Below are positions 3,514-45,845 of a DNA stretch of 64,000 nucleotides, in pieces; positions within the stretch are counted from its first letter, which is position 1; each line of letters starts with the position of its first letter. The notes under the pieces were generated by a model that worked only from the letters and a program-made list of their open reading frames with translations, was not told the DNA's origin and made no database searches. The stretch lies in NCBI RefSeq assembly GCF_055900595.2, contig NZ_CM148325.1. One strand, given 5' to 3'. The translations under genes and the position numbers were made by a program.

Positions 3514-5055
<1,542 letters not shown>

Positions 5056-5236
5056 AAAAGTTTGATGCTCAAAGAATTAAACTTCGTAATGAATTACATG
5101 TTCACTCTTGAGACTTGGTATTCATTTTTCGTCTTGCGACGTTAAGAATCCGTATCTTCGAGTGCCCACACAGATTGTCTGATAAATTGTTAAAGAGCAG
5201 TGCCGCTTCGCTTTTTCTCAGCGGCGCGGGGTGTGC

Positions 5237-5264
5237 ATAATACGCTTTCCCGCTTCAGAGTCAA
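5237..5264 (-). promoter_or_regulatory. rrn P2 promoter (-35 TTGACT, -10 TATTAT, GC-rich discriminator)
   Basis: Minus-strand reading: TTGACTctgaagcgggaaagcgTATTATgcacaccccgcgccgc; a boxA-like antiterminator (TGCTCTTTAACAA) follows in the leader at about 5187-5199. Confidence 0.75.
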
Positions 5265-5354
5265 GCATTTTTTTGCTTTTCTCTGTCGAGATTCTCAGGA
5301 GAATCTCGCTGACCCGGCGGCGTGTTTGCCGTTGTTCCGTGTCAGTGGTGGCGC

Positions 5355-5405
5355 ATTATAGGGAGTTATTCCGGCCTGACAAGAGGAAATTTAAAATAAT
5401 TTTCC
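5355..5405 (-). promoter_or_regulatory. rrn P1 promoter with AT-rich UP element
   Basis: Minus-strand reading: aaaattattttaaatttcctcTTGTCAggccggaataactcccTATAATgcgcc; classic rrn P1 architecture with a GCGC discriminator. Confidence 0.75.
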
Positions 5406-5431
5406 GACCGCGCATTTTTTACTCTTTATGC

Positions 5432-5977
5432 TTATTTCAGCGTCGGTTTGTCGGTTAAATGGGCGATTTCTCGGGCGAAATTCGCCACCTGCTGCCAATC
5501 GGTATAGACAACTTCTTTGCGCGTATCCGTTTCACCGCCTGACATCTTCATAATCAGCTTGATCATAAAGCGGTCGTACCAGCGGTAACGTGGATAACGT
5601 AGCGCCCCGGCAATGACGGCACAGCGATCGGGACGCCATTGTGAACTCATCAGAAACTTCCGCGCGTAGCTGTTGGTCTGTGGAGTACGCTTCTCCGGTT
5701 TACGCGCCACCAGGTTTACGGAGTAAAAGGCGCTCGGCATCGAATTCAGCCGCGTCGCATGCTTTTTGACAAATTCCTGGAACGCAGAGTGGTAGTGACC
5801 ATAGCGAATAGAAGCACCAATGACCACGCGATCGTAGTTTTCCCACTGGGGTTCTTCAATGCGATGCACATTAGCGACATCTGCCTGGATCCCCAGTTCT
5901 TTCAGTTCCGAAGCCAGGTAGGCGGCAATCTCGCGCGTTTGTCCGTCCCTTGTTGAGAAAAGAATTAATGTTTTCAC
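5432..5977 (-). CDS. hemG: protoporphyrinogen IX oxidase, flavodoxin-like
   Basis: 181-aa ORF starting [29 protein letters not shown]…; matches HemG; position immediately upstream of rrnA is conserved. Confidence 0.9.
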
Positions 5978-5988
5978 GTATTACTCCA

Positions 5989-7440
5989 TCATTCACGCCA
6001 GAAAGTCGGGGTAAAGAGCACCAGCAATGTAAAGACCTCGAGACGACCAAACAGCATATTGGCAATCAGGATCCATTTAGCCACCGGGTTCATACTGGTA
6101 AAGTTATCAGCAACCACGCCAAGCCCTGGCCCCAGGTTATTCAATGTCGCAACAACCGAGGCAAAGGCAGAAAAGTCATCCACACCCGTGGCGATAATCG
6201 CCAGCATACTGACGATAAACACCAGGGCATAAGCGGAGAAAAATCCCCAAACAGCTTCGAGGATACGTTCCGGCAGTGCGCGATTCCCCAGCTTAATGCT
6301 GTAAACGGCGTTCGGATGCACCAGTCGTTTCAGCTCACGGTTCCCCTGCTTAAACAGCAGCAGAATGCGGATCACTTTCAGGCCACCGCCCGTAGACCCG
6401 GCGCAACCGCCAATAAATGCTGAACATAAAAGCAGTACCGGCAAAAAGAGCGGCCAGCGGGCAATGCTGTCAGTCGTAAACCCGGCGGTTGTCGCCATCG
6501 ACACCACCTGGAAAAACGCCTGGTTAATTGTCATCAGCGCCGAACTATAGACATTATGAAACCACAGCACGAGGGTACAAATAACCACCAGCGTAAACTG
6601 TACGCCGATAAACATGCGAAATTCCGGATCGCGCCAATAAACCTTCAGACTACGCCCACTTAACAGCGAAAAGTGCAGACCGTAGTTACAGCCGGAGATC
6701 AGCAGGAAGATAGCAATGATAGTGTTAATAGTCGGGCTGTCGAAATAACCGATACTGGCATCATGTGTCGAGAAGCCGCCAATAGCGATAGTCGCAAAGC
6801 TATGGCCGATGGCATCAAAGGCATCCATTCCGGCAAACCACAACGCCAGCGCACAGGCGACGGTCAGCAAGACATAAATCAACCACAGGGTTTTCGCCGT
6901 TTCCGCAATTCGCGGGCGCATTTTGTTATCTTTCAGCGGGCCGGGCATTTCCGCGCGATAGAGCTGCATCCCACCCACGCCGAGGATAGGCAGTATCGCA
7001 ACCGCCAACACGATGATCCCCATCCCGCCAAACCATTGCAGCATCTGGCGATAAAAGAGGATTGCGTGAGGAAGTGTATCCAGTCCCACCAGCGTAGTGG
7101 CCCCCGTGGTAGTCAGACCGGAGAAAGATTCAAAAAACGCATCGGTAATCGTGAGGTTTGGGCTTTCCGAAAAGATAAAAGGGAGCGCACCGACGCTACC
7201 CAACACGGTCCAGAACAGCACCACTATCAGAAACCCTTCACGGGATTTCAGTTCGCCCTTTTCTTTACGGTTCGGCCACCACAGCATAGAACCAATGGCA
7301 AGGGCGACAAAAAAGGTCTGGGTAAAGGCGCGGCCCGCACCATCCCGGTAGATGAGTGCTACCAGCCCAGGGATAATCATGGTCCCTGAAAATAAGATGA
7401 CCAGTAGTCCAACAATTCGGGTAATGGCGCGAAAATGCAT
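5989..7440 (-). CDS. trkH: Trk-system potassium uptake protein
   Basis: 483-aa polytopic membrane ORF starting MHFRAITRIVGLLVILFSG…; synteny with hemG and pepQ. Confidence 0.9.
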   Translation of the reverse strand: MHFRAITRIVGLLVILFSGTMIIPGLVALIYRDGAGRAFTQTFFVALAIGSMLWWPNRKEKGELKSREGFLIVVLFWTVLGSVGALPFIFSESPNLTITDAFFESFSGLTTTGATTLVGLDTLPHAILFYRQMLQWFGGMGIIVLAVAILPILGVGGMQLYRAEMPGPLKDNKMRPRIAETAKTLWLIYVLLTVACALALWFAGMDAFDAIGHSFATIAIGGFSTHDASIGYFDSPTINTIIAIFLLISGCNYGLHFSLLSGRSLKVYWRDPEFRMFIGVQFTLVVICTLVLWFHNVYSSALMTINQAFFQVVSMATTAGFTTDSIARWPLFLPVLLLCSAFIGGCAGSTGGGLKVIRILLLFKQGNRELKRLVHPNAVYSIKLGNRALPERILEAVWGFFSAYALVFIVSMLAIIATGVDDFSAFASVVATLNNLGPGLGVVADNFTSMNPVAKWILIANMLFGRLEVFTLLVLFTPTFWRE

Positions 7441-41823: not shown

Positions 41824-42714
41824 ATGGACACCAAACAAACGCGGCAGGGCGTATTACTCGCTCTTGCCGCTTATTTTATTTGGGGTATTGCGCCAGCGTA
41901 CTTCAAGCTGATTTACTACGTGCCCGCCGATGAGATCCTGACGCATCGCGTGATCTGGTCGTTTTTCTTTATGGTGGTGCTGATGAGCATCTGCCGCCAG
42001 TGGTCTTATTTAAAAACGCTGATTCAGACGCCACAGAAAATTTTTATGCTGGCCGTCTCTGCCGTACTGATTGGCGGCAACTGGCTACTGTTTATCTGGG
42101 CGGTGAACAATCACCATATGCTGGAAGCGAGCCTCGGTTATTTTATTAACCCACTGGTGAATATAGTGCTGGGAATGATTTTCCTCGGCGAGCGATTCCG
42201 CCGGATGCAATGGCTGGCGGTGATTCTGGCGATATGTGGTGTGTTGGTTCAGTTGTGGACTTTTGGTTCACTGCCGATTATCGCGCTGGGGCTGGCGTTT
42301 AGTTTTGCCTTCTACGGCCTGGTACGCAAGAAGATTGCTGTTGAAGCGCAAACCGGCATGTTAATCGAAACTATGTGGCTGCTGCCCGTGGCGGCGATTT
42401 ACCTGTTTGCTATTGCCGACAGCTCAACCAGCCATCTGGGGCAAAACCCGATGTCGCTGAATTTACTGCTGATCGCCGCCGGTATTGTCACTACCGTACC
42501 GCTGTTGTGTTTTACTGCGGCTGCGACACGCCTGCGTCTCTCAACGTTAGGCTTTTTTCAGTATATTGGCCCGACGCTGATGTTCCTGCTGGCTGTGACG
42601 TTTTATGGTGAAAAACCGGGTGCCGATAAGATGGTGACCTTCGCCTTTATTTGGGTGGCGCTGGCAATTTTTGTGATGGATGCGATTTATACGCAGCGTA
42701 GAACGTCCAAATAA
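41824..42714 (+). CDS. rarD: DMT-superfamily permease RarD
   Basis: 296 aa from MDTKQTRQGVLLALAAYFIWG…; the ORF-track start at 41818 is a TTG two codons upstream. Confidence 0.9.
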   Translation: MDTKQTRQGVLLALAAYFIWGIAPAYFKLIYYVPADEILTHRVIWSFFFMVVLMSICRQWSYLKTLIQTPQKIFMLAVSAVLIGGNWLLFIWAVNNHHMLEASLGYFINPLVNIVLGMIFLGERFRRMQWLAVILAICGVLVQLWTFGSLPIIALGLAFSFAFYGLVRKKIAVEAQTGMLIETMWLLPVAAIYLFAIADSSTSHLGQNPMSLNLLLIAAGIVTTVPLLCFTAAATRLRLSTLGFFQYIGPTLMFLLAVTFYGEKPGADKMVTFAFIWVALAIFVMDAIYTQRRTSK

Positions 42715-42801
42715 ATATATTCTGAAAAAATATGCCGACTCTTGCATGAGAGTGGGCATATTGTCATGCTGACAGGAGACTCACACAAGGATGTAAAATT
42801 T

Positions 42802-43182
42802 ATGTTGCGTATATTTATCCCAACATCTAACGGTAAGATTTCCAGACGTCGTTATATATTTTCATTTATTTTAATAAATTTCATTTTTGCCTTTCTTATT
42901 ATCTTTTTTAACGATGGGGACGCAGGTTTTCTTGTTATTGTCTCTACCATCGCACTCCATTATCTCGTCATCAACATGAATTGCCAACGACTCCGTGATA
43001 GTGGTTTCATATATATAAAAACTTATGTTTTTGGTACATTAGCAGTATATATCATCTCTATCATCACAATGATAGCCGAACATTTTGATTGTTCAGGCAA
43101 TGGTTCGATGATTTTTTTGATTTGTTATTTTTCTACTTTCAGTATGCTAATGCTTGCACCTACTGATTCATCAAAACAATAG
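42802..43182 (+). CDS. yigG: small inner-membrane protein of unknown function
   Basis: 126 aa from [20 protein letters not shown]…; RBS AAGGA upstream of ATG 42802; conspicuously AT-rich. Confidence 0.75.
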
Positions 43183-43195
43183 TTATGGAGTATTT

Positions 43196-43576
43196 ATGAG
43201 TAAGGAATATATGAACGATGGTTCATTAAGTGAAAAATGGAAATATCGCTTTAGTTTTTATGATCAACATGGCTTTCCTGGATTCTGGGGGGCAACACCA
43301 GAATATAAAGCAGCATTTAAAGCATTAAAAGTAAGACAACGATTAACTATTCAAATTAATTTCATTGCTTTCTTCTGTTCCTGGATCTATCTATTTGTTC
43401 TGGGTTTATGGAAAAAAGCAATTATAGTTCTATTACTTTGCATTCTATCTCTATTTGTTGGTGCACTAATTGGCGTTAACATTTTGGGAATTGCCGTAGC
43501 AGCCTATGTTGCTGTTAACACGAACAAATGGTTTTATGAGAAAGAGGTAAAAGGGTTAAATACCTGGAGCCTTTGA
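43196..43576 (+). CDS. yigF: small inner-membrane protein of unknown function
   Basis: 126 aa from MSKEYMNDGSLSEKWKYRFSFYDQHGFPGFWG…; RBS GGAG upstream of ATG 43196; AT-rich. Confidence 0.75.
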   Translation: MSKEYMNDGSLSEKWKYRFSFYDQHGFPGFWGATPEYKAAFKALKVRQRLTIQINFIAFFCSWIYLFVLGLWKKAIIVLLLCILSLFVGALIGVNILGIAVAAYVAVNTNKWFYEKEVKGLNTWSL

Positions 43577-43618
43577 ATAACTGGTGGCTTAGCCGGGCTA
43601 AACCACCACTCTCGTTTT

Positions 43619-44569
43619 TTACAACCAGTTCTTCCGTTTAAAGTACAGATACGGTGCCAGGCCCGCGAGGATCATAAAGATAATCGCGCCTGGGTAGCCG
43701 AAGCTCCACTTCAGTTCCGGCATAAACTCAAAGTTCATCCCGTAGCTGGAAGCGACCAGCGTCGGTGGCAGGAACACCACGGATACCACCGAGAAGATTT
43801 TGATGATGCGGTTCTGCTCGATATTGATAAAGCCCATCGCCGCCTGCATCAGGAAGTTCACCTTCTGGAACAGGGATTCGTTATGCGGCAGCAGGGATTC
43901 GATATCTCGCAGGATTTCACGCGCCTGTTCCAGTTGCCCACCCGGTAAGCGTGCTTTACGTACCAGGAAGTTGAGCGCGCGCTGGGTATCCATCAGACAC
44001 AGGCGAACTTTCCAGCCGATATCTTCCAGTTCCGCCAGCGTGGAGAGCGCCTCGTCGTACTCATCGCCCTGATGCCCTTCCATAATTACCCGGCTCAACT
44101 GCTCCAGGTCGCTGTAGATATTTTCAATTTCATCTGCCAACTGTTCGATTTTGGTTTCGAACAGATCCAGCAGCAGCTCGTAGGCGTTACCGTCCACCAT
44201 TGACTGGCTACGGGCACGCATACGATACAGACGAAAAGCGGGCAGTTCACGCTCACGCAGAGTAAACAGACGACCATCACGGATGGTAAATGCCACAGTG
44301 GAGTTACCGGCGTGATCTTCCGCATCTTCAAAGAAGAAGAAGGAGTGAATATGCAGGCCGTCATCGTCTTCAAAGAAACGTGCCGATGCTTCGATGTCTT
44401 CCAGTTCCGGGCGGGTTGCCAGGCTCTGCCCAAGTTCAGATTGTACGCGCAGTCGCTCGTCGTCATCCGGTTCGACAAGATCAATCCATACTGCATTTAC
44501 AAGGGGTTGTGACTCTTCGACTTCCAGCCGGGTCAGTCGGTTATTTTCCAGTTGAAATGCGCTCAGCAT
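43619..44569 (-). CDS. corA: magnesium/cobalt transport protein CorA
   Basis: 316 aa from [31 protein letters not shown]…; C-terminal YGMNF motif. Confidence 0.95.
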
Positions 44570-44938
44570 GACCGGGACTCCCAATGCTTAAAATATCGGA
44601 CAGTTCGGTGGGCACACAGAAACAAATTGGGTTTCAGACCATTAAACAGCCTGACTCAGCGCGACGGGAAAAATTGAGGTCGCTGACAACCGCTAAGGCT
44701 ATCAGCAAAAAGGGATAGCCTTAGGAGTTGATCCTGGATGACAGGATAATGAGCCAGTATCTACTGGGTGTGTCCAAGGCGAATGTCCTCTTAGAGTGAT
44801 CGTGCGCGCATGTTACGCCAGCAAAATTTTGCCGTCAACACGCAACAGAACACCACAGAACAATAGTTGAACTTCGCGCTTTTTGGTACTCGTCAAGGTC
44901 GCTAACAGGATAAAAAAATCCCACATCCAGGACCTATA

Positions 44939-45703: not shown

Positions 45704-45736
45704 AACAACCGTTTTGTGTCACTGAATATGGTGCAG

Positions 45737-45841
45737 ATGCCGGATGCGGCGTAAACGCCTTACCCGGCCTACATGACATTGCAATTTATTGAATCTACAT
45801 GATTTTGTAGGCCGGATAAGGTGCGCAGCACCGCATCCGGC
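45737..45841. repeat. REP palindromic unit pair (BIME-like)
   Basis: GCCGGATGCGGCGTAAACGCCTTACCCGGCCTAC … GTAGGCCGGATAAGGTGCGCAGCACCGCATCCGGC in inverted orientation. Confidence 0.8.
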
Positions 45842-45845
45842 AACG

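Follow-up and report, generated by a model that had tools for sequence, protein, structure and literature searches.

A 64,000-nt stretch of an Escherichia genome (RefSeq assembly GCF_055900595.2, contig NZ_CM148325.1), hereafter called the window in its entirety, contains at positions 42742–43576 the known E. coli yigG-yigF gene pair, located between rarD and corA. The reading that we favor, with a probability of roughly 0.72, is that the pair is an ancient AT-rich operon, silenced by H-NS and encoding conserved inner-membrane proteins, whose low guanine-plus-cytosine (GC) content is at equilibrium and whose chromosomal slot is hypervariable. An earlier note on this DNA, made from the letters alone, had named both genes and their neighbors correctly, with rarD upstream and a convergent corA downstream; the hydrophobic products of approximately 126 aa that it described are each exactly 126 aa long, with grand average of hydropathy (GRAVY) values of 0.85 for YigG and 0.43 for YigF. 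Since the two co-directional genes are separated by a gap of only 13 bp, they probably form one operon. The lineage represented by the window is a divergent Escherichia, 95.4% identical to K-12 across 12.9 kb; over the pair region the identity to the K-12 allele is 96.3% for the DNA, 97% for YigG and 98% for YigF.

Base composition and codon usage

The pair region has a GC content of 33.8% (0.338) against a window mean of 52.3% (0.523), equivalent to z = -5.7 as calculated from all 835-bp segments of the 64 kb (sd 0.032). Segments of this size that are as GC-poor make up 0.19% of the total and every one of them overlaps the yigGF locus, where GC content at this length reaches its minimum for the 64 kb; 300-bp segments with less than 38% GC are likewise confined to this locus. 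By gene, the GC content is 32.3% in yigG and 34.4% in yigF, compared with 50.7% in rarD and 52.8% in corA, and the GC content at third codon positions (GC3) is 0.29 and 0.27, respectively, compared with 0.57 ± 0.04 (minimum 0.46) in 47 reference open reading frames (ORFs) of the window. The relative codon adaptation index (CAI) of yigG and yigF (0.56 and 0.55, versus 0.685 ± 0.05) is the lowest in the window, and the codons ATA, AGA, AGG and CTA account for 6% of the codons in these genes versus mostly 0–2% elsewhere. Runs of A/T of at least 8 nt occur at 12 per kb at the locus, the longest being 18 nt, as opposed to 2.2 per kb in the window, a 5.5-fold difference. Because RarD, a polytopic protein of equal GRAVY, is encoded with a GC3 of 0.62, the AT-richness does not stem from amino acid composition. 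The earlier description of two genes AT-richer than their neighbors, with A/T runs and rare codons, is thus upheld by sliding-window GC, GC3, CAI and run counts alike, and the GC content lies significantly below the window mean, the point on which that description had been made to depend. With an AT content of 66% against a background of 48%, the locus has the composition of an H-NS-silenced xenogeneic locus.

Selection, age and a probable compositional equilibrium

The ratio of nonsynonymous to synonymous substitution rates (dN/dS) was 0.05–0.24 overall, with values of 0.13–0.24 for yigG and 0.05–0.16 for yigF. For the pair it amounted to 0.07–0.13 in comparison with K-12, 0.16–0.21 with the allele of strain SCU-115 and 0.05–0.23 with Salmonella. 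This substitution pattern indicates that yigG and yigF are real genes under purifying selection. The pair occupies the same rarD-corA slot, in the same order, in Salmonella (56% identity for YigG and 85% for YigF), Superficieibacter (45% and 82%), Atlantibacter (49% and 63%), three species of Kosakonia (~30% and ~47–50%) and E. whittamii (80% and 88%). In E. albertii, YigF (71% identity) adjoins corA; the contig begins just upstream of yigF, so that no score for YigG was obtainable.

Between E. coli and Salmonella, the synonymous divergence (dS) of the pair is 1.6–2.4, i.e., saturated, against 0.7–1.6 in the flanks. The GC3 of the pair is 0.27–0.34 in both E. coli and Salmonella, against 0.59–0.66 in the flanks; the Kosakonia copies have a GC3 of 0.57. 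Since GC3 stands at ~0.3 in both species despite saturated synonymous sites, the low GC content would be a maintained equilibrium and not a fading relic. Changes that could be polarized within the K-12-type clade comprised 8 GC>AT and 8 AT>GC, giving an equilibrium GC of 0.33, which equals the observed value; in rarD, used as a control, the corresponding numbers were 39 and 9 (small numbers in both cases). The earlier note had taken the compositional contrast to suggest an ancient horizontal acquisition. The age that it proposed agrees with the occurrence of the pair in the same slot of five genera and with a dS to Salmonella that has reached saturation, as it has in the flanks, but a transfer signature in decay is at odds with the steady GC3 and with the match between equilibrium and observed GC.

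H-NS binding and promoters

The AT-rich, H-NS-coated nature of yigG-yigF has already been published for K-12. There, yigF/yigG constitutes a "promoter island" of 663 bp that is H-NS-bound according to all studies (PMC3661553, Table 1) and is predicted to be foreign by two compositional methods, those of Nakamura et al. and Lawrence et al. (PMC3661553). An extended protein occupancy domain (EPOD) spanning yigF-yigG-rarD has been used to illustrate silencing (PMC8282354, Fig 7C). An intragenic yigG promoter, grouped with the H-NS-repressed intragenic promoters, was characterized in vitro and shown to need an AT-tract and σ70 R451 (PMC7229825), and an RNA polymerase peak obtained by genomic systematic evolution of ligands by exponential enrichment (gSELEX) lies between yigG and yigF (PMC3946193). 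The window shares with this K-12 island/EPOD the genes, their position and order and the AT-tract, and differs in that its allele comes from a divergent lineage. The counterpart of the K-12 fragment "yigG 1.2", which carries the intragenic promoter, is identical to K-12 at 144 of 150 positions and retains the AT-tract (~43009–43030). H-NS silencing, which the earlier note had put forward as possible and proposed to check against chromatin immunoprecipitation (ChIP) data, is therefore documented for the K-12 allele, bound in all ChIP studies (PMC3661553), and would extend to the 96%-identical allele of the window.

Features of the YigG and YigF proteins

YigG has four predicted transmembrane (TM) helices and matches the NCBIfam equivalog model NF008474 / PRK11371 with 251.9 bits (E 1.4e-75, cut-off 217), its residues 1–126 aligning to model positions 13–138. 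The DUF805 family (PF05656; small inner-membrane proteins of the E. coli YhaH/YhaI type) is characterized by four TM helices, the second and third of which are joined by a loop with a conserved basic/acidic motif. YigG seems to resemble it in its similar size and four TM helices; a basic N-terminal G-K-I-S-R-R-R-Y segment precedes its TM1, and its TM2 is followed by an R-L-R-D-S-G loop; this R-x-R-D-S-G loop (R63, R65, D66, S67, G68) is invariant in the YigG family alignment. Some sources do name YigG-family members DUF805. The score of YigG against the Pfam model, however, is 17.3 bits and falls under the gathering threshold of 25.7; that of the SCU-115 allele, 23.1 bits, is likewise sub-threshold, and so are the matches at E ≤ 0.01 obtained for 7 of 15 YigG-family members (best E 3e-5). 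Because no individually scanned member attains the gathering score, we refer to YigG as DUF805-like and not as a member. The AlphaFold 2 (AF2) model of YigG (predicted local distance difference test score, pLDDT, 86; predicted template modeling score, pTM, 0.77) places helices at residues 15–38, 42–66, 72–92 and 100–117. When 1.84 billion representative proteins were searched exhaustively, only 21 relatives of YigG emerged, and a profile search reached, apart from a few Enterobacter-labelled proteins, only Escherichia, Salmonella and Kosakonia, i.e., the slot-bound Enterobacteriaceae family alone and no true DUF805 proteins. As judged from these searches, the YigG family appears restricted to a few genera of Enterobacteriaceae.

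YigF, with two to three predicted TM helices, is a member of DUF2628 (PF10947), as evidenced by a match of 39.1 bits over residues 18–117 (E 1.1e-9, threshold 23); the SCU-115 allele scores 41 bits. The N-terminal soluble part contains the invariant residues W15, R18, F19 and F21 and is followed first by an L-G-L-W-K-K helix and then by a pair of long TM helices. The AF2 model (pLDDT 94, pTM 0.85) likewise has two long helices, preceded by an N-terminal part that is short and helical. The W-x-x-R-F-x-F and L-G-L-W-K-K motifs are shared with the DUF2628 proteins of Pseudomonas, Pantoea and Budviciaceae, which are 35–45% identical to YigF; the difference is that pairing with a YigG-family gene is seen only in the Enterobacteriaceae slot, the relatives elsewhere being singletons that lack YigG, rarD and corA as neighbors. 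Around 60 loci of distant homologs in Pseudomonas and Pantoea had no conserved neighbors, apart from LysR genes now and then and artifactual antisense ORFs. A sequence search of the PDB gave no match to YigG, and for YigF nothing beyond SemiSWEET matches at noise level; PADLOC and PHROGs matched neither the two proteins nor the alternative cassette. Neither protein is related to the solved structures, defense families or phage families searched. The possibility that YigG and YigF, both of 126 aa, are paralogs was rejected on the basis of an hhalign probability of 0.9%.

Haplotypes of the rarD-corA slot

In a census of 5426 complete E. coli genomes, yigGF was present in 2961 (~55%), of which approximately 550 carry a deeply diverged allele of the SCU-115 type with protein identities of 77% and 71%. 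Between the K-12 and SCU-115 alleles dS is 0.7–1.2, against 0.16 in the flanks. An allele at least 99% identical to that of the window was found in 11 of the 5426 genomes. A raised local divergence around the slot between the window and K-12 was considered and rejected, the divergence being uniform at ~4.6%.

The same slot is occupied in 2627 of the 5426 genomes (~48%) by a DUF3289/DUF943 cassette of ~33% GC. Experiments have shown the two encoded proteins to be a periplasmic, colicin-M-like toxin and the protein that confers immunity to it; they are candidate type VI secretion system (T6SS) cargo (PMC11148199); PAAR fusions in Klebsiella and Photobacterium are in line with that role. This cassette resembles yigG-yigF in being a two-gene unit of similarly low GC in the same slot, and differs from it in encoding proteins that have no relationship to YigG or YigF and in its later arrival with a duplicated fragment of corA. 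Where it has inserted, the 3' end of corA (the last 147–243 bp) is duplicated. In 299 genomes both cassettes stand in tandem, in the order yigG-yigF-corA'(147 bp)-DUF3289-DUF943-corA, and Atlantibacter subterranea displays the full layout of these genomes with a corA' of 243 bp (locus 4429–6477). Strain 536 has retained 52 bp of yigG (window 42838–42889), now joined to the sequence that lies upstream of the cassette.

The O157:H7-type haplotype (1431 of 5426 genomes, ~26%) has kept corA', and yigGF is replaced. In O157:H7 Wll001, the slot holds a 128-aa ORF of the YigG family (locus 1090–1476, +) that is unannotated in that RefSeq record and has 25% identity, an hhalign probability of 97.6% and an R-I-R-D-T-G motif; its partner is an unrelated membrane ORF of 104 aa on the opposite strand (locus 575–889, -). 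E. whittamii carries, in addition to yigGF, an orphan DUF943 gene between yigF and corA (locus 4487–4984) without the DUF3289 effector. Taken together, the layouts fit a history in which yigGF would be ancestral, the effector/immunity cassette would have entered beside corA later, duplicating the corA 3' end, and a loss of yigGF would have followed, in the 536-type haplotype at the least; in its place, the O157 type carries a different cassette. Since YigG- or YigF-like neighbors are absent from the DUF3289/DUF943 pairs of Pantoea and Klebsiella, the co-location of the two cassettes looks positional and not functional. A literature search on the rarD-corA slot as a hotspot yielded only noise.

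A second presence/absence polymorphism was noted 2 kb away, in the yigE-uvrD gap (window 45704–45845): strains 536, SCU-115 and FDAARGOS_1250 have a gene of the S-adenosylmethionine (SAM) hydrolase / SAM-dependent halogenase family after yigE (L001 7854+, L002 5579+, L005 7284+), whereas in the window and in K-12 yigE is directly followed by uvrD, without such a gene. Two kinds of misleading database entries were also encountered. Several records labelled "plasmid" contain the recQ-pldA-rarD-corA-uvrD core of the chromosome or are themselves chromosomes of 4.9 Mb; they occur among the PLSDB entries CP047533, LN868946, CP019447, CP134663 and CP141089, and a 1.5-kb contig in a metagenome-assembled genome of "uncultured Alistipes sp." is E. 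coli rarD-yigGF-corA at 97–100% identity, which points to bin contamination.

Coordinates, start codons and hairpins

The features of the locus are listed in Table 1. The start of the pair region at 42742 is an in-frame upstream TTG, the first of the mechanical ORF; the RefSeq-style start of yigG is the ATG at 42802, and translation from an alternative ATG at 42766 would yield the form of 138 aa that PRK11371 models. A leader ORF of 18 codons, ysgD/corL, lies upstream of corA (44721–44777, -) and has a TTG start in the window strain.

Table 1. Features of the rarD-corA slot and its flanks, in window coordinates
Feature	Coordinates	Strand	Remarks
rarD	41824–42714	+	EamA-family transporter; left conserved flank; ORF, annotated in 99.9%- and 96%-identical records
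Hairpin in rarD-yigG spacer	42729–42762		Inverted repeat; -18 to -22 kcal/mol, z -4.1 to -5.1
Likely ribosome-binding site of yigG	42787–42791		AAGGA, 10 nt upstream of ATG
AT-rich islet (variable cassette of the slot)	42792–43618		GC 0.337; bounds are the alignment ends against strains with other cassettes
yigG	42802–43182	+	126 aa; four-helix inner-membrane protein, DUF805-like
Counterpart of K-12 fragment "yigG 1.2"	42953–43102	+	Intragenic sigma-70 promoter in the K-12 fragment; located via primer sequences of PMC7229825
Likely ribosome-binding site of yigF	43186–43189		GGAG, 7 nt upstream of ATG
yigF	43196–43576	+	126 aa; DUF2628 protein
Hairpin common to convergent yigF and corA	43583–43607 (element to 43620)		Plus strand -14.6 kcal/mol (z -2.8), minus strand -21.8 (z -4.8)
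corA	43619–44569	-	Mg/Co transporter; right conserved flank

On the minus strand, the hairpin of the rarD-yigG spacer is directly followed by U6 (the complement of ~42724–42730), while the plus strand has no U-tract. It is thus predicted to be a canonical intrinsic terminator acting on the minus strand, from yigG towards rarD, though rarD and yigG are co-directional. The hairpin is kept by compensatory changes in the SCU-115 allele and has a different inner stem in Salmonella, and the surrounding 83 bp (42709–42791) are 97.6% conserved, even in strains without yigGF. It may serve to insulate rarD from antisense transcripts arising at spurious promoters of the islet. In the hairpin common to yigF and corA, the plus strand has a 7-nt spacer and then U6 at 43615–43620, overlapping the corA stop codon. 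A search of Rfam over 42.4–45.0 kb found nothing real.

Discussion

The reading outlined at the beginning can be put as a sequence of steps. The 0.83-kb islet would have been resident between rarD and corA since before the split of Escherichia and Salmonella. H-NS would coat and silence it, as others have shown in K-12 and as is presumed for the window allele, and the AT-richness would yield many spurious promoter-like sites on both strands. Being silent and weakly expressed, the locus would drift to an AT-biased mutational equilibrium and so stay under H-NS control, within a slot that would constitute a small hypervariable locus, the other haplotypes of which carry a YigG-like gene that has diverged deeply, a T6SS effector/immunity pair of the colicin-M-like kind, or both. 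The known model of xenogeneic silencing by H-NS is matched in the AT-richness relative to the host, in H-NS occupancy and silence (in K-12), in spurious intragenic promoters and in the restricted range; yigGF departs from it in being very old, syntenic across genera and without mobility genes or amelioration, its low GC apparently being an equilibrium. The absence of the pair from ~45% of E. coli genomes means that YigG and YigF are dispensable, and the proteins are probably conditionally expressed accessory components of the inner membrane or envelope, under H-NS control.

Several points weigh against this reading. The H-NS evidence comes from the K-12 allele and is carried over to that of the window, and the equilibrium estimate is based on 16 substitutions only. 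Matches to the H-NS nucleation motif TCGATAAATT with at most two mismatches were at chance level in the window (59 observed vs 56 expected); the islet has 2, a count that is uninformative. A consensus scan saw no plus-strand sigma-70 promoter upstream of yigG; the consensus promoter/terminator scan also missed both hairpins of Table 1. No tRNA was found in 38–48 kb, no flanking repeats and no integrase or transposase ORF between rarD and corA, so the locus does not qualify as a classical genomic island or mobile element, which would have an integrase/transposase, a tRNA target or flanking direct repeats; nor was a donor lineage found for yigGF. Of the acquisition proposed in the earlier note, what speaks in its favor is the composition together with a patchy distribution, the pair having been found only in Escherichia, Salmonella, Superficieibacter, Atlantibacter and Kosakonia and missing from much of E. 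coli; an entry from outside would accordingly be a putative part of the account. The phenotypic data, all of them from a Salmonella "yigG" mutant, also require caution. In a study of attachment to produce, deletion of "yigG" in Salmonella was reported to reduce surface attachment and growth under chlorine, and the gene to be 82% identical to that of K-12 and absent from S. Enteritidis (PMC3579871), but the identity of the gene in that study is uncertain, since the reported value fits YigF (85%) and not YigG (56%). In the annotation of LT2, the names yigG and yigF may have been exchanged. The absence from S. Enteritidis suggests that the slot is variable in Salmonella too.

Among the alternatives, that of two spurious ORFs, i.e., chance frames in an AT-rich spacer that are annotated by habit, might draw on the lack of a known function for the proteins, on the many truncated or pseudogenized copies in databases (yigG of FDAARGOS_1250 has an internal stop) and on the ~45% of E. 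coli genomes that do without the pair. It is effectively refuted by the substitution pattern, dN/dS being well under 1 in every comparison, and it would leave unexplained a length fixed at 126 aa across alleles of 71–77% identity, motifs that are invariant across genera, a YigF above the Pfam DUF2628 threshold, AF2 models with pLDDT values of 86 and 94 and ribosome-binding sites at both starts. We consider it unlikely, though deserving of serious attention, that the locus was never transferred, that it is instead an old native locus whose AT-richness is the mutational equilibrium of weakly selected genes, with H-NS binding as a consequence and patchiness as the result of repeated loss. The missing mobility signatures, the stable synteny across five genera and the equilibrium composition are all as such a history would have them; the recent changes in rarD (39 GC>AT vs 9) imply that an unselected locus is expected to be AT-rich, and the GC3 of 0.57 in the Kosakonia copies partly tracks a richer genome. 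A native origin is harder to reconcile with a YigG family that occurs in a handful of genera (the 21 matches among 1.84 billion representatives) and with a scan of 100,044 species genomes that found none in Klebsiella, Citrobacter or Cronobacter, a scan that was pattern-limited and missed Salmonella too. The nearest relatives of YigF outside the slot, at 35–45% identity, are in distant taxa, published compositional methods class the pair as foreign (PMC3661553), and other cassettes have demonstrably entered the slot.

Somewhat less probable, in our view, is that the slot is a competition/immunity islet, in which the YigG family, with or without YigF, shields the inner membrane from a toxin or a phage in the manner of orphan immunity or exclusion proteins, and frequency-dependent selection keeps deeply diverged haplotypes, as with the T6SS effector/immunity pair found in the same slot. 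The idea has its attractions, as the periplasm-toxic, colicin-M-like DUF3289 and its DUF943 immunity protein are found in this very slot in 2627 of 5426 E. coli, an orphan DUF943 gene sits beside yigGF in E. whittamii, and E. coli has three YigG-family haplotypes, at 97%, 77% and 25% amino acid identity, with a K-12 to SCU-115 dS far from the flank value (0.7–1.2 against 0.16). Moreover, YigG evolves faster than the flanks (56% identity to Salmonella vs 90–97%), and the proteins are small, polytopic and located in the inner membrane, the pair being frequently lost. The window, however, has no adjacent toxin gene, the gene-wide dN/dS of 0.05–0.24 gives no sign of positive selection at the gene level, and there are no PADLOC or PHROG matches; the YigF relatives in ~60 Pseudomonas/Pantoea loci are singletons without a conserved toxin-like neighbor, and the DUF3289/DUF943 pairs of Pantoea and Klebsiella have no YigG/YigF-like neighbor. 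The more specific proposal that the fast-evolving YigG-family proteins are membrane immunity or exclusion factors, kept as trans-specifically old haplotypes, and that the T6SS cassette later joined an H-NS-controlled "arsenal", is slightly more doubtful still and is offered as speculation.

To what was published for K-12, the analysis of this operon adds the purifying selection on both genes, the shared slot in other genera together with an AT-richness that appears to be at equilibrium in E. coli and Salmonella, and the slot polymorphism in E. coli. A foreign-looking composition that has outlasted saturating synonymous turnover calls for caution against using low GC as a clock of recent transfer. 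Its persistence fits a self-reinforcing loop, in which a silent locus becomes AT-biased and, being AT-biased, is bound by H-NS. The multi-haplotype slot, with an insertion/deletion history that can be reconstructed, provides both a typing marker and a testable hint on the role of these orphan membrane proteins.

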